A stretch of 64,000 nt of DNA from Acidimicrobiia bacterium. Its GTDB lineage: Bacteria > Actinomycetota > Acidimicrobiia > Spongiisociales > ZC4RG35. Shown piece by piece: positions 1 to 59,035 of this stretch. The stretch is from NCBI GenBank assembly GCA_965203555.1, contig CBDBCY010000004.1, positions 960,001 through 1,024,000 on the forward strand, written 5' to 3'. Each line of letters opens with the position of its first letter. Within the stretch, counting starts at the first letter, position 1. The translations under genes and the position numbers were made by a program. The notes beneath the pieces are model-generated. The model had not been told where the DNA came from. It made no database searches and saw nothing but the letters and a program-made list of their open reading frames with translations.

Positions 1-1890
1 ATCCGGCCGGGTGAGCACTTGTTCCACGATGCCCGACTCGATGGTCTTGCCCTCTTTCATCACTATGACCCGGTCGGCAAGCATGTTCATCACTCCCAAG
101 TCATGGGTTATGAAAACGAAGGCAAGTCCCTCTTGCTTGGCCAGCGAGGTCAGAAGCTCCAGTATCTGCGCCTGAATGCTGACATCCAATGCCGAGACCG
201 GTTCGTCGCATATGAGCACCTGCGGCTCAACCGACAGCGCTCGAGCGATGGCAACTCTCTGGCGCTGTCCCCCTGACATCTGGTGTGGGTAACGCTCTGC
301 GAAGGACGGATCCAAACCGACCCTCTCCAGCAATTGACCGGCTTGCTCCCAGGGAGAATCGGAAGAGTCAAGAGCGTGAGCCCGGGGTCCTTCCATCAGG
401 AGATCAACAACCTTGCGTCGGGGGTTGAGGCTTCCGTAGGGATCTTGAAAGATGATCTGCGCTCTCCTCCGTATATCTCTGAGTGCGCTCTTGCCCAATT
501 CGTCAAGATCGGCGCCAAGGATTTCTCGACGTCCCTCGACGAGAGCGTTACGTGGCTCGAGCCGTATCAGGGACAGAGCGACCGTTGACTTTCCACTCCC
601 TGATTCTCCCACCACCGCCACCGTCTCCGCTCTCCTCAACTCGATGTTGAACTCCCGAACGGCTGGAGTGGCTTTGGTCCCATAAGAGACCAGGCGGCCC
701 TCCCGGTAGGCCACCGACAATCCCGTAGCCCTGAGGATGACTTCATGGCTGCTCTCGGACTCCCCTCCAACTTCAGAAGAGAACGCGGCGGTCTTGAGAG
801 AAAGCGGTGCTAATACCGGGGTTGGGTCCGTTAGTGTCCTGTCCGATCTCTCAGGTGCGTCATCGGCAAGTCCGTCTCCCAACGGATAGAAGCAGGCCGC
901 ACTGTGCAGTCCACCGTAGTCTTCGAGCGGGGGAGAGTGGTTTCGGCACTTGTCGGCGGCTCGAGAACATCGCGGCGCGTAGACGCAATTGTCCCAGGTT
1001 GACTCCAGGGTGATCGGAGCGGTCCCGGTGATGGGCTGTACCTCGGTGCGGAAACCGCCCCTCAGGTCCAGTGGACAACTCTCGATGAGGCCTTTCGTGT
1101 AAGGGTGCCGAGGTTCAGAGAGCACGTTCGGTGTCCTACCCCTTTCGACCACGCGGCCGGAATAGAGCACCGCCAATCGATCCGAAACGCTGGCGATGAC
1201 CCCCACATCGTGGGTAACCAGCAACATGCTCAAACCCATGTCGTCCACCAGGGAACGAAGCAGTCTCAGGATTCGGGCCTGTGTTCGAACATCCAGAGCG
1301 GTTGTGGCCTCGTCGGCAATCAACAACAACGGGTCGCAGGCAATGGCCATGGCGATGGCGACTCTCTGCTGCTGCCCACCTGACAACTCATGTGGATAAC
1401 GGGAAAGGAAGCCCCTGTCGCCCCGAAGCCCCACAGCTTCCATCAATTCGACCACTCGTTGATCTCGATCACGCCTATTCAAAGTCAGATGTGCCTTGAT
1501 GACCTCGCGCACCTGAGTCCCCACTCTCATCACCGGGTTGAGGCTTGAAATGGGGTCTTGGAAGATCGTTCCAACCAGAACGCCCCGAACCTCTCGCCAG
1601 TTGACCCGATCAGATGTCAGGGCTTGCCCACCGAGACTGATCGAACCGCCCGTGACGTCGATTCCCCTGGGCAGGAGTCCCACGATGGCCTTGGCCGTCA
1701 GGCTCTTTCCCGCCCCGGACTCTCCAACCAGCCCCAGACATTGGCCTTGCTCGATTTCCAGGCTGACGCCCTTGACCAGGTCCAGGGGATCAGCGCCTCC
1801 TCCGTGCAGAGACAATGTCAAGTCCGTGATCTCAAGCGTCGGTGGGCGACTGCTGTCTTCGGATCTTCGTTCAGTCCCGGTCATGGCCAT
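1..1890 (-). CDS. Dipeptide/oligopeptide ABC transporter ATP-binding protein with two fused ABC domains (3' end runs off the window)
   Basis: Manual translation from ATG 1890 is open to base 1. It has two Walker A motifs (GESGAGKS, GESGSGKS), two signatures (LSGGQQQR, MSGGQRQR) and an HPYT plus Cys-rich oligopeptide-ABC tail after domain 1. Confidence 0.9.
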   Translation of the reverse strand, partial: MAMTGTERRSEDSSRPPTLEITDLTLSLHGGGADPLDLVKGVSLEIEQGQCLGLVGESGAGKSLTAKAIVGLLPRGIDVTGGSISLGGQALTSDRVNWREVRGVLVGTIFQDPISSLNPVMRVGTQVREVIKAHLTLNRRDRDQRVVELMEAVGLRGDRGFLSRYPHELSGGQQQRVAIAMAIACDPLLLIADEATTALDVRTQARILRLLRSLVDDMGLSMLLVTHDVGVIASVSDRLAVLYSGRVVERGRTPNVLSEPRHPYTKGLIESCPLDLRGGFRTEVQPITGTAPITLESTWDNCVYAPRCSRAADKCRNHSPPLEDYGGLHSAACFYPLGDGLADDAPERSDRTLTDPTPVLAPLSLKTAAFSSEVGGESESSHEVILRATGLSVAYREGRLVSYGTKATPAVREFNIELRRAETVAVVGESGSGKSTVALSLIRLEPRNALVEGRREILGADLDELGKSALRDIRRRAQIIFQDPYGSLNPRRKVVDLLMEGPRAHALDSSDSPWEQAGQLLERVGLDPSFAERYPHQMSGGQRQRVAIARALSVEPQVLICDEPVSALDVSIQAQILELLTSLAKQEGLAFVFITHDLGVMNMLADRVIVMKEGKTIESGIVEQVLTRPD

Positions 1891-43785: not shown

Positions 43786-44714
43786 TGAAGCGATCGAGTG
43801 TTTTCGTCGCCGCTCTTGCGGCTTTCGTGTTGATGCTTTCGGCTTGCGCCACCGAGGAAGTTGCCGGGCCGGTGAAGATCGCCCGGGCCAACTGGGACTC
43901 CGGTTACATGCAGGCCGCCATCTACGCGGCTCTGATCGAGGAGTTGGGGCACGAGGTCACTGACCCCGCCGCCGCCACCCTCAGCCCCTATTCGTTCTAT
44001 CCGGCTTTGGCCGCTCGCCAGTACGACCTGTGGGCCAATGGCTGGTTCCCCCTCCACAACATCTACCTGGAAGGAGAGAACGTCACCGGCCAAGCGGTTG
44101 AACTCCCCATCGAGCCGATCGGCACGCAGGTGGGTGGTGGAGCCACAGACGGCTTGATGATCGACAAGGCCACAGCTGACAGACTGGGAATCAGAGACAT
44201 GGATGGGGTCGCCGCCAACGCCGGCGCCTTCGACCACGACGGCGACGGCAAGGCCGACCTCTACGGATGCAACGTCGGATGGGGATGCGAAACCGCCATC
44301 AACGAACAGATCGCCAATGAAAGTTGGGGCTCAGGAGTCGAACAGATTTCCGGTACCTACAACGACTTGGCGCAAGGCGTCGTGGAGAGAGTGGCGGCCG
44401 GTGAATCGGCCCTGTTCTACGCTTGGACGCCCAACTGGACGAACACCGTCCTAGTGGCGAACAGCAATGTGGTTTGGCTGCAATCCAACGTGAATGACAT
44501 CCGAGCGGTGGCCAACACCGACTTCCTGGATGAATACCCGGACATCAAAGCTCTCCTCGATGCGGTGGTAATCCCGCTGACCGACATCGCGGCTCAAAAC
44601 GCCAAGATGGCCGCCGGGGATTACAGCGAGGCTGACATCAGAGCTGACGCCGAAGCCTGGATCGCGGCCAACCGCGACACGGTCGACAGCTGGCTCGCAG
44701 CCGCCCGAGGCTAA
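43782..44714 (+). CDS. Glycine betaine/proline-binding lipoprotein (ProX/OpuAC-like)
   Basis: Lipobox LSAC, NGWFP, GCNVGWGC, YAWTPNW; GTGA overlap with the BCCT stop. Confidence 0.9.
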   Translation: MMKRSSVFVAALAAFVLMLSACATEEVAGPVKIARANWDSGYMQAAIYAALIEELGHEVTDPAAATLSPYSFYPALAARQYDLWANGWFPLHNIYLEGENVTGQAVELPIEPIGTQVGGGATDGLMIDKATADRLGIRDMDGVAANAGAFDHDGDGKADLYGCNVGWGCETAINEQIANESWGSGVEQISGTYNDLAQGVVERVAAGESALFYAWTPNWTNTVLVANSNVVWLQSNVNDIRAVANTDFLDEYPDIKALLDAVVIPLTDIAAQNAKMAAGDYSEADIRADAEAWIAANRDTVDSWLAAARG

Positions 44715-44727
44715 CTTACGACTAACT

Positions 44728-44780
44728 GGTTGGGTTTGGTCGGCGCTCCCGCCGGCCAGACCCAACCGCTTTTTTTCTTT
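44728..44780 (+). terminator. Intrinsic terminator after the BCCT-ProX operon
   Basis: GGTTGGGTTTGGTCGGCG / CGCCGGCCAGACCCAACC stem followed by a T-run. Confidence 0.85.
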
Positions 44781-44789
44781 GGCAGGTTT

Positions 44790-44930
44790 TCAGACTGCCT
44801 ATCGTGTCCTCCACCCGCTCAATGGTGCCCCGAATTTCCTTGCACCTCTCGAACATCTCAGGATCCGGATCGGAGATGAGATCCCTGGTCACCGGATCGA
44901 CCAGCATGTACTCCTCCTCGATTCCCGGTG
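44790..44930 (-). pseudogene. Fragment of a glutamate-cysteine ligase family 2 (YbdK-like) gene
   Basis: GIEEEYMLVDPVTRDL matches the GxEEEyxLVD N-terminal motif; only about 45 codons remain. Confidence 0.55.
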
Positions 44931-45283
44931 GCAAACCAAGGTTTCCGCAAGACTATGAAATTGTCTCCCCCGGATTCGACAACCACTTCTGGAGTGTCCA
45001 CTCCCGCGTCGTGAACACCGGGATTCCCAAAACAACAGCTCAGATTCCCTCACCGGAGCAACGGCAACGTCTGGGACCACACGGGCGCCACATGGACCTT
45101 TGACGGGAGGACCAGAACGAATCCCCGGTAAGGGGCGAGCGACAGGGAACCGACCCCCCGAGAATCCATTTATTCCCAGTAAAAGGGGAAAAAATCCGGC
45201 ATTTCCTCACAAATAAACAGTGCCATTACCACCATCCCAGCCAAACGAGCGATAGTGTAAAAGGGCAATCTTGTGATTGATGT

Positions 45284-45610
45284 GAGCAGTCCCGAGTCGG
45301 GTTGCTCGCTGAATACCATAGCCCGCCAACAGATCGGGGAGTAGCTACCGCCGACTCTGGGCGAATAGGCGAGGCCATCTGTGTCCTCACGTCAATCACA
45401 GGAACAACCCGACGACGTGAGGACAACCATGATAACGCGCATGGGAACCCCATGACGCCCTTGAGGCAGATAGGCGCCCACCCCACCGCCACCATCCCCG
45501 CCGAATGCGGGATCACCCACCCGCCGGGGAGAACACCACCCCGCCGGCAAAACCCTCGCAGGATCAGGAAACGATCCCGCCCTCCAATCGTATGTGAAGG
45601 GCTAATACGC
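45284..45610 (+). ncRNA. Putative structured 5' leader RNA with yybP-ykoY-like (Mn2+ riboswitch) motifs
   Basis: ACAGAT-CGGGGAGTAGC...GGCGAGGCC-ATCTGT (45329-45382), then a 12-bp stem TGTCCTCACGTC/GACGTGAGGACA enclosing AATCAC (45382-45425), then several further short hairpins. Confidence 0.4.
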
Positions 45611-45773
45611 ATGTTAATAGCAGTTAGCACGCAACGTCCCGACCCGTCTTAGGTGATCGAACAACCGGACAACCCCGGACCCCGAGAAGAAGGGAGAAGA
45701 GCCCCCATGGCCGACAACGACGACCAAACCATACAGCTACGCCGATCAAGAATCCTGAAAGGATCAAAACACC

Positions 45774-48188
45774 ATGGGAACCAGTAAACGAATTATCACG
45801 GTCGCAATCGCGACCATCTTCATGTTCACCACCGCCCTACCCGCTATAGCCCGACCACCCGACCACCCCGGAGAACAGGGGAGCAGTAGCAGCGGATCGA
45901 GCGAAAGCGGATCAGGATCAGGAAGCGGATCAGGATCAGGAAGCGGATCAGGATCAGGAAGCGGATCAGGATCAGGAAGCGGAAGCCGGGGAGGTGGCAG
46001 CCCCCACGATCCCAGCAACAACCCGCCCGGCGGATCGAGCGGAGGCGGATCGAGCGGAGGCGGAAGCCCCAACCCCGATCACGATCCCAACAATCCCGAC
46101 AGCCACGACAACCGCGGAAGCGGATCAGGATCAGGAAGCGGATCAGGATCAGGAAGCGGATCAGGATCAGGAAGCGGAAGCCGGGGAGGTGGCAGCCCCC
46201 ACGATCCCAGCAACAACCCGCCCGGCGGATCGAGCGGAGGCGGATCGAGCGGAGGCGGAAGCCCCAACCCCGATCACGATCCCAACAATCCCGACAGCCA
46301 CGACAACCGCGGAAGCGGATCAGGATCAGGAAGCGGATATTGCGACCCCGGCAGATGCGGAAGCGGATCATCCCCATCAGCGACCAACCCCACGCTAAAG
46401 ACAACAAAGACCATAGGCGGCACAACCATAACCACCAGCAGCGACGGATCTATGTCGGCTACGGGAACCACCAGATCAGGAGCCAAGGTAACCGTTACCA
46501 GAAACCCAGACGGAACAACGACCATGTCCGTCGCGGGAAGCACCACTATCGCCGGAGTCAAGACAACCGTGACCGGCAAAGACGGAACCGTCACAGTCAC
46601 CGGCACAGGACCCCTAGGCACCAAGGTAACCACAACCATTGACGCCACCACCGGCGAGATCGAAACCAAAGTCGAAGCCACCCCCGAATCAGTAGCCGCC
46701 GCCATCGAGAAAGCCGGGAAGGACAAGGCCAGGAAAGAGATCGACAAACGAACCCCCAAAGGCGCAAGCGGCGGCGGAGGAGGCCGCGGCGGAGGCGGGG
46801 GCCGCGGCGGAGGCGGAGGCGGAGGCGTGACCTGCTTCAACAGTTGCCTCAACCACAACACAGGAACACCTAACAATCCAGCCAATACCAACGCTTTCAA
46901 CAGACGCACAACCACCACCCAACCACCCACTGGCAGCCCCCACGATCCCAGCAACAACCCGCCCGGCGGATCGAGCGGAGGCGGATCGAGCGGAGGCGGA
47001 AGCCCCAACCCCGATCACGACCCCAACAATCCCGACAGCCACGACAACCGCGGAAGCGGATCAGGATCAGGAAGCGGATCAGGATCAAGCGGAAGCCGCG
47101 GCGACGGAGGCGGAGGCGAAGAAACCCGCACCGGCCAAGCCACCACCGAAAGCGGAAGCAAAGAGCCGGAGAACCCGGGCAACCAGGAGCCGGAGCCGAG
47201 AACGTATTGGTGCGGGAGCGGACAGCTGGCCAGCAACTACCGCCAATGCAGCGAATCCGAATTCAACGAGAAGGTCCGCCAGGAAGAGCAGGCAGAGCGG
47301 GACCGCCGGGCAGAGCGGGACCGCCAGCGGGAGCTAGCACGCGAGCAGGAACGCCTAAACCAGGAGGCCCGGGAACGGGAACGCCAGGAGCAGGAAGCCA
47401 CCAGCCGCACGACGGCCACCACCGGAGGCGGAGGCGGAAGCTATACAGCCACCGGCCAACCAGAAACGACCACCTACTCCGATGGAACGAAGATAACCAC
47501 GACTACACATGCCGACGGATCAATAACCGGGACAGCAGTAAGACCCGACGGCAAAACCGTTACCGTAGTCGTGGATAGAACCGGCAAGGTCTTAAGCAAA
47601 AAGACAACCGACACCGGAGGCGAAACACCACGCCAGGAGCCGGAGCAGCGCCAAGAGCAAGAGCAGGCCCCGCCGCCGAAACCCGAACCCGAGCCGGTTT
47701 ATCGGACGGAAACCCGCTACCGCACGGTAACCCGCACCCGAACGGAAACCACCTACCAGACGGAAACCCGCTACCGGACCGAGACCCGCTACCGGACAGA
47801 GACCCGCTACCGGATAGAGTGGGAGCGCGGCACTGCACCCGTCCGCAAGATAGTCAAAAAGACCCGCATGGTCCGCAAGTCCCGGCTGGAGGACCGCACT
47901 TACACACAGCCAGCATATTGGCAGTATGACCCCAAGACCGGCCGGGTGAACAGGGTTCCGGAGAAAGCGGTGACCTACCAAGTTCCCGTCGACTACTACG
48001 AGGAGGAAGAGTACGACGTGGTCGTGGAAACCGGGGAGACCTACCCGACCTTCTACCGGAAGGTGATTCCCTACACGGTACAGGTGTCCTACAGCACGCA
48101 GGTACCGTACACCGTCGAGGTAGAGGGAACCCGCCAGGTGTCCTACGAAGAGCAGGAGGCGTACACCGTCCAGGTACGCGACCAGTAA
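45774..48188 (+). CDS. Large secreted low-complexity repeat protein (Gly/Ser, His/Asp/Asn/Pro repeats, Thr-rich region, coiled coil, C-terminal YRTETR/YTVQV beta-hairpin)
   Basis: 804-aa open frame with AAAGGA RBS and signal peptide MGTSKRIITVAIATIFMFTTALPAIA; in-frame repeats; downstream hairpin. Confidence 0.8.
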   Translation: MGTSKRIITVAIATIFMFTTALPAIARPPDHPGEQGSSSSGSSESGSGSGSGSGSGSGSGSGSGSGSGSGSRGGGSPHDPSNNPPGGSSGGGSSGGGSPNPDHDPNNPDSHDNRGSGSGSGSGSGSGSGSGSGSGSRGGGSPHDPSNNPPGGSSGGGSSGGGSPNPDHDPNNPDSHDNRGSGSGSGSGYCDPGRCGSGSSPSATNPTLKTTKTIGGTTITTSSDGSMSATGTTRSGAKVTVTRNPDGTTTMSVAGSTTIAGVKTTVTGKDGTVTVTGTGPLGTKVTTTIDATTGEIETKVEATPESVAAAIEKAGKDKARKEIDKRTPKGASGGGGGRGGGGGRGGGGGGGVTCFNSCLNHNTGTPNNPANTNAFNRRTTTTQPPTGSPHDPSNNPPGGSSGGGSSGGGSPNPDHDPNNPDSHDNRGSGSGSGSGSGSSGSRGDGGGGEETRTGQATTESGSKEPENPGNQEPEPRTYWCGSGQLASNYRQCSESEFNEKVRQEEQAERDRRAERDRQRELAREQERLNQEARERERQEQEATSRTTATTGGGGGSYTATGQPETTTYSDGTKITTTTHADGSITGTAVRPDGKTVTVVVDRTGKVLSKKTTDTGGETPRQEPEQRQEQEQAPPPKPEPEPVYRTETRYRTVTRTRTETTYQTETRYRTETRYRTETRYRIEWERGTAPVRKIVKKTRMVRKSRLEDRTYTQPAYWQYDPKTGRVNRVPEKAVTYQVPVDYYEEEEYDVVVETGETYPTFYRKVIPYTVQVSYSTQVPYTVEVEGTRQVSYEEQEAYTVQVRDQ
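45896..47090 (+). repeat. Intragenic repeats: GGATCAGGATCAGGAAGC arrays and three near-identical ~150-bp blocks (starts 45996, 46191, 46932)
   Basis: Seen directly. Each block encodes GSPHDPSNNPPGGSSGGGSSGGGSPNPDHDPNNPDSHDNRGSGSG. Confidence 0.9.
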
Positions 48189-48213
48189 CCCGACCGCCCC
48201 CAGACAGGATCAG

Positions 48214-48242
48214 CCGGGGAGGCGACCCCCTCGCCTCCCCGG
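48214..48242. terminator. GC-rich hairpin between the converging secreted-protein gene and purB
   Basis: CCGGGGAGGCGA-CCCCC-TCGCCTCCCCGG, a perfect 12-bp stem. Confidence 0.7.
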
Positions 48243-48317
48243 ACCCCAAACCCAGCGAGCCCCCAGCCCAATACACCCCCAACCACCCAACACACCACCC
48301 CTTACGAACAATCAGGG

Positions 48318-49628
48318 CTAGCTGTTGGAGGTGAGTTGCAGCGCGCGGAGTCGGTTGAAAACCGCCCCGGTTTCGGCCAGGAAACGGGTTGGATCGGAAA
48401 GATCTTCCAGGCGCTCTGCCGGGACGGTCACCTCGGGGTCCGAAGCGAGTTTCTCCCATAGAGTCCCGCCGCTTTCCAATACATGGGAAGCTGCCCGCTG
48501 GACGATCCGGTAGGCTTGGTTTCTGCTCAAACCCTGCCGGCTGATCAACTCTGACAGCAGGGCGCCGCTGACCACCAGCCCGCCGGTGGCGTCCAGGTTG
48601 GCCCTCATCCGGACGGTGTTGACCTCCAAGCGTCGCATCACCCGGGTAAAGGTGGCCAGCATGTAGTGCAGAATCGTGCAGGCATCGGGGATTATGATCC
48701 GCTCCACGGAGGAGTGGCTTATGTCCCGCTCGTGCCACAGCGCCACGTTCTCCAAAGCTGTCGTCGAGTAGCCCCGCAGCAGACGGGCCATTCCGGCCAT
48801 TTGCTCCGAGGAAATCGGGTTTCGTTTGTGGGGCATGGCCGATGAGCCCTTCTGACCGGACCGGAATCCCTCCGCCACTTCCCCCACCTCGTTGCGCTGC
48901 AATAGCCGTATCTCCGTAGCGAAACGCTCCAGCGAGGCCCCGGCCAAGGCGATGGCGCCCAGAAACTGGGCGTGACGGTCTCGGGCGGTCACCTGGGTCG
49001 AGGCCGGTTCTGACCCGATCCCCAGTTCCCTGCACACAAATTCCTCTATAGCCGGGGGGCACTGCGCGTAGGTGCCCACCGCCCCGCTCACCTTGCCCAC
49101 CGCCACCGCCTCCCGGGCGGCGTTCAGACGCTCATGGTCCCTGGCGAGTTGGAAGGCCCAGTTGGCAAGTTTCAAACCCCACGATGTCGGCTCGGCCCAC
49201 ATACCGTGAGTGCGACCCAGGATCAGAGTGTCCTGGTGTGACAGTGCCGCCTCCTTGACCACTGAAAAGAGAACTTCCACATCCCGGGTCAACAATCGAG
49301 CGGCCTCGCCCATGATCACACCGGAGGCGGTGTCGATCACATCGGATGAGGTGAGCCCGTAGTGGACCCACTCCCCTCCCGCCTCCATTCCTGCCGCCAG
49401 AACATCGACAAAGGCGGCAAGATCGTGATTAATGATCGCTTCCCGTTCTGCTACCTGCTCGGGGGTAGGCACTCTCGCTTCTCGAATGGCCGTCACCGCT
49501 TCCGACGGCACCACTCCCTGCAGAGCCCAAGCCTCCAGCGCCAGCTCCTCCACCCTCTTCCAAGTGGCCAAGCGCCGCTCCGGAGACCACACTTCGGCCA
49601 TTTCCGGAAGCGTGTAGCGATCAATCAT
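48318..49628 (-). CDS. purB: Adenylosuccinate lyase
   Basis: MIDRYT, HYGLTSSD, GRTHG, GSSAMPHKRNP, WHERDISHSSVER. Confidence 0.97.
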   Translation of the reverse strand: MIDRYTLPEMAEVWSPERRLATWKRVEELALEAWALQGVVPSEAVTAIREARVPTPEQVAEREAIINHDLAAFVDVLAAGMEAGGEWVHYGLTSSDVIDTASGVIMGEAARLLTRDVEVLFSVVKEAALSHQDTLILGRTHGMWAEPTSWGLKLANWAFQLARDHERLNAAREAVAVGKVSGAVGTYAQCPPAIEEFVCRELGIGSEPASTQVTARDRHAQFLGAIALAGASLERFATEIRLLQRNEVGEVAEGFRSGQKGSSAMPHKRNPISSEQMAGMARLLRGYSTTALENVALWHERDISHSSVERIIIPDACTILHYMLATFTRVMRRLEVNTVRMRANLDATGGLVVSGALLSELISRQGLSRNQAYRIVQRAASHVLESGGTLWEKLASDPEVTVPAERLEDLSDPTRFLAETGAVFNRLRALQLTSNS

Positions 49629-55661: not shown

Positions 55662-55716
55662 CGTCCCCCTGTGGACTCGACCCGCATCCGTTCAGTGATT
55701 TGCCAGGGTAACCCGG

Positions 55717-56841
55717 TTACCCCAGCACCAACTCGGTCCACTCCTGGATCCACCGTTCGCGGTTGGCGTCAATCAGAGCCGGATCGACCGATGCCGGTTG
55801 CTCGGGAAGAGCGGTGTGCTCAACGAATTCGGGAGGAAGCGAGGCTTCGGTATTGGCCGGGAAAACGAACCAGGTGAGAGGGATCTGCTCCTGGAACTGC
55901 ACTGACAGCATGTAGTCGATCAAATCGCCGGCAGCCTCCGGAAACTCGGTCCCGTCCAGGATCCCGGCAAACTCGATCTGTCGATAGCACCCGTGCGTTA
56001 CCACCCCGGTGGGCGCCACATCAGTCGGGGGATCGGAGTAGATCACCTCGGCGGGCGGCGAAGAGGCATAGGAGACAACCAGCGGACGGTCTCCTCCCCA
56101 CCGGGTGAACGAGGAGTAATAGGCGGTGTCCCAGTCCGGGACCACCTCCACGTCGTTGTCCACCAGGGCTTGCCAGTAGTCCTTCCAGCCGTCTTCCCCG
56201 AACACTGCGATGGTGGTTAGCAGGAAGGCCAGCCCGGGGGAAGAGGTGGCCGGGCTCTCCACCACCAACTTACCCCGGTAGGGCTCGGTGATCAGGTCCT
56301 CGAGGTTGCGAGGAGCTTCGGCGTCGGCCATCACCTCGCGGTCGTAGTTGAGGCACACGTCGCCGAAGTCGATGGGAGTCACCCGGTTCTCGGGGTCAAG
56401 TCGGATGTTCTCGGGGGTCTTGTCCAGCAGGGAGGAACGGTGTGAACGGAACACGTCGGCGTCCAGCGCCCTCGACAGGAAGGTGTCATCCACGCCGAAC
56501 AAGACATCGGCCAAGGGATTGTCCCTGGTCAGAATGGCCTGGTTGACCAGCGAACCGGTATCTCCCGCCGGCAGGACCTCCACCGCGATGCCGGTTTCGG
56601 CGGTAAACGGCGCGAAGGTTTCCTCGCTCACGCCCCCGGCGAAGGAATCGTGGCTGATAATGGTAAGAGTTTCGGGTACGGTTTCAGGCGCCGCCGTCGT
56701 GGTTGGGGCCGCCGTCGTAGTTGGGGCCGCCGTCGTGGTTGGCGCCGCGGTTGTATCGGTGGAGTCGCCCGCCTCATCGGCACCGCATGCTGCTAGCACC
56801 AGCGCCAGAATGCTCATCCCCACCACCAGTTTTCTACTCAT
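55717..56841 (-). CDS. thiB: Thiamine ABC transporter substrate-binding lipoprotein
   Basis: Lipobox LAAC, HDSF, DVLFGVDD, PATSSPGLAFL, WDTAYY, SYASSPP, CYRQIEFAG; TPP riboswitch upstream. Confidence 0.92.
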   Translation of the reverse strand: MSRKLVVGMSILALVLAACGADEAGDSTDTTAAPTTTAAPTTTAAPTTTAAPETVPETLTIISHDSFAGGVSEETFAPFTAETGIAVEVLPAGDTGSLVNQAILTRDNPLADVLFGVDDTFLSRALDADVFRSHRSSLLDKTPENIRLDPENRVTPIDFGDVCLNYDREVMADAEAPRNLEDLITEPYRGKLVVESPATSSPGLAFLLTTIAVFGEDGWKDYWQALVDNDVEVVPDWDTAYYSSFTRWGGDRPLVVSYASSPPAEVIYSDPPTDVAPTGVVTHGCYRQIEFAGILDGTEFPEAAGDLIDYMLSVQFQEQIPLTWFVFPANTEASLPPEFVEHTALPEQPASVDPALIDANRERWIQEWTELVLG

Positions 56842-57671: not shown

Positions 57672-59035
57672 GGCTGGACGGAACCCGCCCCCAGGATTCG
57701 CAGAGCAACCGCCTCGGCGACGGTCGCCCTCTCCAGTTCCCCCAGGTCCAGGCTCTCGTTGGGAGCGTGAATGGCCGAGCCGGGATCTCCCATCCCGGCC
57801 AACAGAAGGGGCGCGTCCGGAAACACTGTTGCAAAAGACGCCAGGAAGGGAATGGTCCCGCCCTCCCCTTTGTCCACCGGGGCAACCCCCCATGCCGCCT
57901 CCAAACCCCGGCGCCAGGCATCGATGGCGGGGTGGGAGGGGACCTGTTGGAAGCCCTCCGCTTCCTCGACGAAGTCCACCTTCAGCTGGGCTCCCCACGG
58001 CAGGTTCTCCCTCAGGTGATCCGAGAGGGCCTGTCGAGCCGATTCCGGGTCCTGTCCCGGGGCGGTCCGCAAGCTCACTTTTGCCCTGGCCACGGGCACC
58101 AGCAGGTTGATCGCCTCCGAGATTGCAGGGGCGTCCACCGCCAGCACCGAGATCGCAGGTTTGGTCCACAGCCGGGATGCCGCCGAACCGGTGCCGATGG
58201 TCTCCAAGCCGGCGACGGCTCCCAGGTTCTCGGCCAGGCCTTCCACGGACATCTCCAGATCGGTCACGTCCTTTCGGACCAGACCCCTCACCGCCACATC
58301 GCCTGCATCGTCATGAAGGGTCGAGAGCAGGCGGACCAGGGTGGTTATGGCATCGGGGAACAACCCGCCGAAGACACCGGAATGTCCCCCGAGTTGGGCG
58401 GTCCGGACTTCCACGGTGCACCCCACCAGCCCACGCAGGGAGGTGGTGATGGCCGGAACCCCCACCGCCCAGTTGCTGGCGTCGGCTATCACCACCGCAT
58501 CACAGGCCAGCAACTCCGTGTACCGCTCCAGGAAGGCTTCCAGGTTGGGCGAGCCAATCTCCTCCTCACCCTCCAGGAACACCTTCATTCCCACGGGCGG
58601 CGACCCTCCAAACGCCTTGGCGGCCCCCAGATGCGCGATCACCCCGCACTTGTCATCGGCTGCCCCCCGGCCGTACATGCGACCCTTCTTCACCACCGCC
58701 TCGAAGGGCTCGGTCTCCCACACCTCAAGATCACCGACCGGCTGGACGTCGTAGTGGGCGTAGAGAAGGACGGTGGGGGCGCCCTCGGGGCCGGGCAGGT
58801 GGCCGTACACCGCCGGGTGTGCCCCTTCGACCTCCAACAACCGGACGTCCCGGTACCCCGCTTCCTCCAGGAGGCGGGCGCATGACTCCCCCGTCCGTCT
58901 CACCTCCCCAGCATGGGATGCGGAGGCGCTGATCGAGGGAATGGCCACCAGTTCAGCCAGATCCTCGACCAGATAGGGAAAGAAAGACGCCACGCCGTCC
59001 CGCAGGTCTTGGTGGGGGGAGGGACTCTGGTTCAT
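57668..59035 (-). CDS. M20 family dipeptidase
   Basis: [44 protein letters not shown]. Confidence 0.93.

Follow-up and report, generated by a model that had tools for sequence, protein, structure and literature searches.

A mobile pseudoknotted leader RNA related to sRNA-Xcc1, found ahead of exported-protein genes and probably acting as a translational switch in cis

In this study, we analyzed a stretch of 64,000 nucleotides (nt; hereafter the window) from an Acidimicrobiia bacterium (Actinomycetota; GenBank assembly GCA_965203555.1, contig CBDBCY010000004.1, positions 960,001 to 1,024,000 of the forward strand), and concentrated on the sequence ahead of a plus-strand open reading frame (ORF) of 804 amino acids (aa). 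We found that positions 45262-45417 hold a conserved RNA, predicted to fold into a pseudoknotted junction, which belongs to a family of leaders distantly related to sRNA-Xcc1 (Rfam family RF02221) and often lies beside transposase genes. At a rough probability of 0.6, we consider this RNA to be a mobile leader that acts as a translational switch in cis. A sequence-only reading of the same DNA had described 45284-45773 as a structured leader of ~500 nt with signature motifs of the yybP-ykoY family, and had interpreted it either as a rearranged Mn2+ riboswitch or as a new RNA motif ahead of the gene of a secreted protein. This observation was partly confirmed: the second suggestion proved essentially right, as a family of such leaders was found, whereas the manganese-riboswitch interpretation was rejected.

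Folding analysis supported the earlier claim of a structured region, with the plus strand of 45284-45773 reaching z = -3.96 (none of 100 shuffles was as good). For 45262-45460 the plus strand gave z = -4.44 (none of 200 shuffles as good). The minus strand gave z = -1.9. The conserved element starts at ~45262, ahead of position 45284 where the leader had been thought to begin, and ends at 45417; thus, 156 nt of the proposed ~500-nt leader held up as a conserved RNA, but the remaining ~350 nt were an unconserved spacer. A paralogue in the same genome shares only the segment from -85 to +136 relative to position 45297. The elements of the conserved RNA and of its immediate surroundings are as follows:

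45253-45258, plus strand: -10-like hexamer TAGTGT of an inferred promoter, with the RNA start predicted a few bases before 45270
45262-45417, plus strand: the whole conserved RNA motif (long-P1 variant, 156 nt), scoring 101.1 bits (E ~1e-18) with our covariance model R1
45270-45286, plus strand: 5' strand of helix P1, lying on a 5' extension; all 17 of its 17 positions can pair with 45386-45402, including 2 G-U pairs
45296-45304, plus strand: 5' strand of helix A, GUCGGGUUG, forming 9 of 9 Watson-Crick pairs with 45405-45413
45305-45310, plus strand: 5' strand of P3, CUCGCU, pairing with GGCGAG at 45368-45373 (97.7% of cells paired in alignment A4)
45311-45320, plus strand: internal-loop strand GAAUACCAUA; the family consensus is GAAUACAAYA, and AAUACAAuA also occurs in the RF02221 consensus
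45321-45362, plus strand: P2, with GCCC (45321-45324) and GGGC (45359-45362) at its base and an apical hairpin (45325-45358) that holds GGGGAGTAGC
45363-45367 and 45368-45373, plus strand: loop strand GAAUA and 3' strand of P3, GGCGAG; the internal loop sets GAAUACAAYA opposite GAAUA
45383-45424, plus strand: alternative hairpin of GUCCUCACGUC (45383-45393) with GACGUGAGGAC (45414-45424), 11 of 11 positions paired, which buries GAGGA (45419-45423), a sequence resembling a Shine-Dalgarno (SD) site
45386-45402, plus strand: 3' strand of P1, in the place of hairpin 2 of RF02221; contains CGTCAATCAC
45405-45413, plus strand: 3' strand of helix A, CAACCCGAC, whose pairing crosses P1 and creates the pseudoknot
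45429-45455, plus strand: mini-ORF of 8 codons (MITRMGTP-stop) with its AUG 5 nt after GAGGA, at the site where the gene starts in homologues; its translation is putative

Comparison of the copies indicated that all of them share one architecture, a pseudoknotted junction, in which helix A is stacked on P3 and followed by the internal loop and P2, with P1 as the outer stem. Helix A (consensus GUCGGGYYR / YRRCCCGRC) was found by RNAalifold and showed covariation at column pairs 43/200 (13 GC, 9 AU, 2 UA and 1 GU) and 35/208 (30 GC and 3 AU). Directly after it on the same strand, P3 pairs CUCGCU with GGCGRG, and compensatory changes have produced CCUGUC/GACAGG in locus L119 and CCCGUC/GGCGGG in L121; in loci L010-L108 the search pattern dictated the 5' strands of both helix A and P3, and L119 and L121 were found independently through RF02221. 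All four pairs of P2 changed on both sides, and its apical part was absent in at least 7 of 36 copies. Over the alignment, 95.3% of the cells were paired; column shuffles gave 88.9% and slid registers no more than 49%. The covariation score of 0.343 (0.216 in shuffles) was reached by none of 500 shuffles. The sequences of P1 are unrelated between copies (27% ungapped identity); cognate P1 duplexes had a mean energy of -29.1 kcal/mol, versus -13.7 kcal/mol (standard deviation 4.6) for strands swapped between copies, and the cognate partner ranked first or second in 29 of 32 copies (the weak ones being L045, L099 and L063). Many U-G pairs make the structure specific to the plus strand, and the helices of two paralogues differed only by changes compatible with pairing, namely C-to-U substitutions that give G-U pairs in helix A and P2.

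The core of the motif (45296-45376) recurs in this genome, which contains four copies of the motif, and in 4 of 16 genus-mates. A pattern scan with 17 fixed bases over 185,579 species genomes returned 99 loci, with ~70 chance hits expected by our own estimate; judged by the sequence downstream, 38 of the 99 were real (including 5 exact duplicates) and ~60 were attributed to chance. Model R1, built from 29 copies, recognized 36 of 97 sources; of the loci attributed to chance, 61 were searched with it, and none gave a match. The hosts were Gamma- and Alphaproteobacteria, Acidobacteriota, Verrucomicrobiota, Binatota and one metagenome-assembled genome (MAG) of Acidimicrobiia, i.e. at least five phyla; in the latter, the motif and ~180 nt of flank were identical to those of a genus-mate of the genome studied here. 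A metagenome collection yielded four loci with two distinct sequences. A set of 150 genomes sampled evenly across the phylum yielded no further match, and none was obtained by blastn against plasmid and phage records or in a scan of viral contigs. The motif is thus rare, and its distribution suggests that the family has spread horizontally between bacterial phyla.

With regard to gene context, the copies appear to follow a promoter and lie ahead of exported-protein genes that are unrelated to one another, in many cases next to an IS1595 or IS1 transposase. The TAGTGT hexamer near 45253, already proposed as a -10 box by the earlier reading, agrees with promoter-like hexamers ahead of P1 in the homologues and recurs in paralogue L002. 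A TANNNT hexamer stood 8-22 nt before the first P1 pair in 18 of 28 homologues, many copies showed TTGACA, a 17-nt spacer and a TANNNT-like box, and these hexamers predict a start ~33 nt upstream of helix A. The downstream ORF of the homologues usually began 17-50 nt after helix A. These ORFs were mutually unrelated, and most of those scanned (14 of 20) had no Pfam family, the others giving DUF732, a chemoreceptor (MCP), PEGA, CsgG and weak matches to DUF3558 and DUF5719. Transposases lay within 3.5 kb of 21 of the 46 loci (14 of IS1595 type and 7 IS1-like) in varying orientation, and all eight IS1595-type proteins tested had DDE_Tnp_IS1595. The window copy itself has no transposase gene next to it.

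Several individual copies showed features of their own. On contig C1 (55395-58866; loci L003 and L004), a degenerate copy (33 bits) and an intact copy (98 bits) in the same orientation flank the only intact IS1-like transposase gene of the genome (55972-56733, minus strand), and the unit lies between two copies of a 266-bp repeat (55687-55951 and 58601-58866) that are 91% identical. Five paralogues in one Acidobacteriota genome (L017, L020, L053, L057 and L093) are ~99% identical from -80 to between +272 and +525, and share the RNA, a lipoprotein signal peptide and a Pro/Thr-rich start before they diverge, with different C-termini. In L005/L104, UUGACGCGAGAGAGGACGCC, comprising the 3' strand of helix A and the SD-containing arm, is tandemly duplicated before the start codon of a lipoprotein, ~110-150 nt after the TCGGG block. 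The paralogous motif in L002, on contig C4, is immediately preceded by a gene for a DUF222 and HNH endonuclease protein of the 13E12-repeat type (142-1383, plus strand). In an alphaproteobacterial MAG (L011), a group II intron (1077-1300, plus strand; D1-D4 model, 172 bits) is located ~2.6 kb upstream of the motif; in the second copy, L055, the shared region is broken by 2.6 kb of extra sequence.

The copy in the window lies within a block that is found in this genome only. The features of the locus are as follows:

ending at 44714: opuAC, with a terminator hairpin at 44727-44768
44790-48315: block of ~3.5 kb unique to this genome, between opuAC and an adenylosuccinate-lyase gene, which contains the motif and the 804-aa gene
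45456-45773, plus strand: unconserved spacer between the motif and the large gene, absent from paralogue L002 and without an Rfam match
45774-48188, plus strand: the 804-aa ORF, presumed cargo, whose product has a predicted signal peptide and repeats of Gly/Ser-rich, Thr-rich and YRTE type

Similarity to the genus-mates ends at 44716-44789 and starts again at 48316-48334. In 13 of 15 genus-mates, the 1.5 kb flanking opuAC contained a lyase match, which was complete or truncated by nothing but the locus end in 11 of them and a fragment of 84-92 aa in the other 2, and the gap between opuAC and the lyase gene, where measured, was ~95-190 nt. Model R1 found the motif in none of the 15 opuAC loci of genus-mates. 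The window copy thus lies in a 3.5-kb insert which the genus-mates do not have. The protein of 804 aa has a hydrophobic N-terminus and no Pfam family match, and the gene after the paralogous motif in L002 encodes a similar N-terminus (MGACKRIII...). It is modular, with a unit of ~45 aa (SPHDPSNNPPGGSSGGGSSGGGSPNPDHDPNNPDSHDNRGSGSG...) repeated three times, GS runs, Thr-rich stretches, a charged ER-rich segment and YRTETR repeats toward the C-terminus. On the minus strand, an ORF of 70 codons (44722-44934) with a strong SD (GAGGAGG) and an AUG near 44912 reaches into the terminator hairpin of opuAC; it matches no Pfam family, and on its left side it overlaps sequence that is conserved in genus-mates.

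Comparison with Rfam placed the RNA at a distance from sRNA-Xcc1. RF02221 gave no match to the window copy at E <= 10, and this copy did not reach the model's cut-off of 53 bits; sibling copies were hit exactly on the motif with 27.4 (in the genome of L065/L079), 33.6 and 28.4 bits. Conversely, R1 hit 11 of 25 canonical RF02221 loci at 25-34 bits. RF02221 itself was detected in 14 of 151 genomes at E <= 0.01, with 9 above the cut-off (both tallies include two unpublished genomes, the loci of which were left out). The two architectures are superimposable: in each, a GC-rich outer helix of 9 bp (GnCnGGnnn / nnnCCnGnC) is followed by an inner stem, which leads to an internal loop (AAUACAAYA opposite GAAUA) and a CCC/GGG stem. 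In the window, 45296-45304 with 45405-45413 (9 of 9 pairs) aligned to the outer helix of the model, and P3, the loop and P2 at 45305-45373 corresponded to its inner stem, loop and short G-C stem. In both RNAs, the 3' strand of the outer helix is also preceded by a segment complementary to the SD of the next ORF, and both occur in mobile contexts, which for sRNA-Xcc1 are integron cassettes, transposons and plasmids.

On the other hand, the variant carries a 5' extension of ~33 nt that pairs with the region of hairpin 2 of RF02221, giving a P1 of 15-22 bp and a pseudoknot, whereas canonical RF02221 has a local second hairpin, no 5' extension and an end in a U-run. In the window, this hairpin is replaced by the 3' strand of P1 with the SD complementarity retained (11 bp), and 45413 is followed by GACGUGAGG instead of the RF02221 tail aCCCuuuu; among the variant copies, a U-run was noted only in L049, L082 and L091. 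The cargo is different as well, since 21 of 25 ORFs downstream of the variant had a hydrophobic N-terminal segment, as compared with only 1 of 18 for canonical RF02221, where the cargo is mostly cytoplasmic; hosts of the variant include Actinomycetota, Acidobacteriota and others. Because of the weak reciprocal hits, the matching architecture and the differences in hairpin 2, 5' extension and U-run, we classified the window RNA as a distant, 5'-extended variant that is related to RF02221 and not a member of it; this variant is well supported and uncatalogued. In the main texts of the literature, nothing on the motif was found by its core sequence or by the topics of IS1595, lipoproteins and pseudoknotted leaders, and the passages searched of a 2026 preprint on noncoding clusters contained nothing relevant.

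How this RNA could act is suggested by a second pairing. The long stem that the sequence-only reading had placed behind its L1-like strings is real, with 11 perfect pairs between 45383-45393 and 45414-45424 and a duplex energy of -19.6 kcal/mol for the 11-bp arms (-23.7 kcal/mol and z = -2.5 with the longer strands of the paralogue). This hairpin takes up 45386-45393, which also belong to P1, and its loop contains the 3' strand of helix A, so that neither P1 nor helix A can form alongside it. The earlier idea of two mutually exclusive folds comes close to this, but the pairing partners are different: neither the proposed pairing of 45291-45307 with GAGTAGC..CCGACTCTGGG nor the closure by ACAGAT (45329-45334) and ATCTGT (45377-45382), both present as quoted, was supported by the homologues, in which the sequences are unconserved or the pairing crosses conserved helices. 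The minimum free energy structure of the single sequence takes the alternative, OFF-like hairpin (-83.0 kcal/mol); with P1, P3 and P2 enforced, the value is -75.2 kcal/mol, and the -14.7 kcal/mol of helix A is not counted by nested folding. In these models the two folds are comparable in energy.

We propose that 45262-45417 would be transcribed as the 5' leader of an mRNA and would work as a translational switch in cis. In the ON state, P1 and helix A would be formed, and the SD (GAGGA, 45419-45423) and the AUG at 45429 would be free; in the OFF state, the hairpin of 45383-45393 with 45414-45424 would bury the SD and break P1 and helix A. The conserved core, once stabilised, would hold P1 and helix A and free the ribosome-binding site, and its invariant part presumably binds an effector (a small ligand, ion or protein). 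The promoter, the leader and the gene of the exported protein would travel together as cargo near IS1595- and IS1-type transposases. As in translational riboswitches and leaders with anti-SD and anti-anti-SD segments, three segments would compete, namely the 5' strand of P1 as anti-anti-SD, its 3' strand as anti-SD, and the SD itself; unlike in those RNAs, P1 is unusually long and a pseudoknot connects the putative sensing core with the switch.

Evidence for cis action came from the pairing with the SD. At canonical loci, the loop of hairpin 2 was a perfect complement of 6-10 nt abutting the SD of the next ORF in 15 of 20 cases; these ORFs start 30-49 nt downstream, and loop and SD flank covary from locus to locus (loci L125-L149). 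This covariation therefore argues for action in cis, despite the trans-acting label in the literature. In 8 of the 29 copies of the variant, pairing between the 3' segment of P1 and the SD region reached z < -2, and a perfect complement of at least 7 nt was present in 10 of 29, in 6 of these at an SD.

A number of observations weigh against this mechanism. Clear SD complementarity was limited to about one-third of the variant copies. A hairpin farther downstream that would compete with helix A reached significance in 8 of the 24 copies from outside the actinobacteria and in none of the 5 actinobacterial copies, and 7.3 bases of the 3' strand of helix A were paired downstream, no better than the 6.5 in shuffled tails; we therefore did not take a hairpin after helix A as a family-wide feature. 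The window copy precedes an ORF of 8 codons and not a real gene, and the 804-aa gene starts 345 nt farther on, so that its control would be indirect at best. A P1 of 17 bp is far longer than the switching helices typical of riboswitches, and being transcribed first, it could simply lock the ON fold. The sole contig from an RNA library spans 45006-45230, short of the motif. Some of the downstream ORFs were picked by eye, and TCGGG and CTCGCTGAATAC are invariant in L010-L108 because the search pattern required them. In addition, sRNA-Xcc1 was reportedly called a trans-acting sRNA in the very title of the 2011 article by Chen et al.

The last point leads to the alternative that the RNA is a stand-alone sRNA acting in trans on distant mRNAs, with the position of the ORF being incidental. 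According to passages in PMC2996969, sRNA-Xcc1 was detected in Xanthomonas campestris as a discrete RNA of ~100 nt (88 nt by mapped ends) with its 5' end at the outer helix, passages of PMC12189769 and of an integron preprint cite work on it as a trans-acting sRNA, and the RF02221 consensus ends in a U-run. We nevertheless regard this alternative as unlikely, since the window copy and most variant copies lack a U-run after helix A, an ORF with an SD in front of it begins a short, fixed distance downstream, and the SD-complementary loop or strand changes together with the SD between loci. Antisense 10- to 12-mers of the core elsewhere in the genome occurred in chance-like numbers (one orientation, no control). 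A doubtful but slightly more credible explanation is that the window copy is an inactive relic, which arrived with the 3.5-kb insert and whose original cargo ORF has decayed to 8 codons. The mini-ORF does stand where homologues have a gene, with ~320 nt of unconserved spacer next to it, and the copy with 33 bits on contig C1 demonstrates that clear degeneration occurs. However, the window copy scores 101 bits, on a par with typical members, and has all its helices intact, and paralogue C4:1485260 has kept the structure through G-U-compatible changes and is likewise followed by a secreted-protein gene whose product has a similar N-terminus. It is very improbable that the element works at the DNA level, as a transposon end, a recombination site or a hairpin of single-stranded DNA. 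The transposases near 21 of 46 loci, the multiple identical copies in some genomes and the long inverted repeats formed by P1 would fit such an element, but the inverted repeats vary in sequence between copies around a conserved interior, the reverse of what transposon ends show; G-U pairs favor one strand, the promoter upstream and the ORF downstream keep a fixed orientation, and orientation and distance relative to the transposase gene vary.

The rearranged yybP-ykoY riboswitch has next to no probability left. The yybP-ykoY RNAs have conserved L1 and L3 loops in a four-way junction and usually lie upstream of genes for metal homeostasis or membrane transporters. The strings on which the comparison was built are all at the positions quoted (GGGGAGTAGC at 45336-45345, GGCGAGGCC at 45368-45376 and CCCGAGTCGGGTTGCTC at 45291-45307), and the window RNA resembles RF00080 in being a structured 5' leader with two short strings, GGGGAGUAGC and GCGAGGCC, that look like the two L1 strands. 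The likeness is coincidental, as the strings fall in an optional tip, a strand of P3 and a strand of P1. The proposed L1, GGGGAGUAGC, is the tip of the P2 hairpin, which is missing in at least 7 of 36 homologues and elsewhere reads GGGGUCGCUCCCC or GGGUAGCUCCC; GGCGAGGCC is the 3' strand of P3, and the L3-like CGTCAATCAC lies in the unconserved 3' strand of P1. There is no four-way junction. The Rfam scan suggested earlier gave no RF00080 match at E <= 10 with permissive filters on 44900-45900 (1001 bases) or 45255-45435 (181 bases), and in a direct search of the whole genome the best RF00080 hit had 12.1 bits, lay elsewhere and stayed below the cut-off of 45 bits, a value that the same search did exceed in 2 of 14 controls. 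Nor does the gene context fit, with no Mn-homeostasis gene among the 20 downstream ORFs scanned.

Other known RNAs were also considered. Rfam searches at E <= 10 on 44900-45900, 45255-45435 and L076 gave noise only (PyrD_leader, D12-methyl, ROSE_3, mir-B6 and sX9), and a scan of 18 homologous loci at gathering thresholds gave nothing at the motif. A hammerhead core, k-turn, sarcin-ricin loop, HDV (hepatitis delta virus)-like topology and tRNA-like acceptor stem with RCCA were compared with the motif by eye, and none fitted. When the whole window was scanned against Rfam 15 at gathering thresholds, the sole match was a thiamine pyrophosphate (TPP) riboswitch (RF00059; 56886-56997, minus strand, 68.5 bits).

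Our analysis removes a false riboswitch call and defines a well-supported, uncatalogued branch of a mobile RNA family that is missed at current Rfam thresholds. A more far-reaching idea, which we put forward tentatively as possible rather than probable, is that the core (helix A, P3, the GAAUACAAYA/GAAUA loop and P2) is the aptamer of an undescribed, transposon-carried sensor resembling a riboswitch, that sRNA-Xcc1 is the same sensor working in cis, and that the long-P1 variant switches on exported or surface proteins in response to some signal; as part of this joint idea, the sensor could be prewired to its cargo gene through the covarying anti-SD segment. If action in cis is true, a widely annotated 'sRNA' would be a portable module of translational control that mobile elements supply together with the cargo, and in the long-P1 branch this module would have become specialised for secreted and membrane proteins, in at least five phyla. 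It would then offer an RNA of ~150 nt with predicted ON and OFF folds in the hunt for a ligand or protein, and may serve as a marker for recently acquired surface-protein genes in uncultured bacteria.

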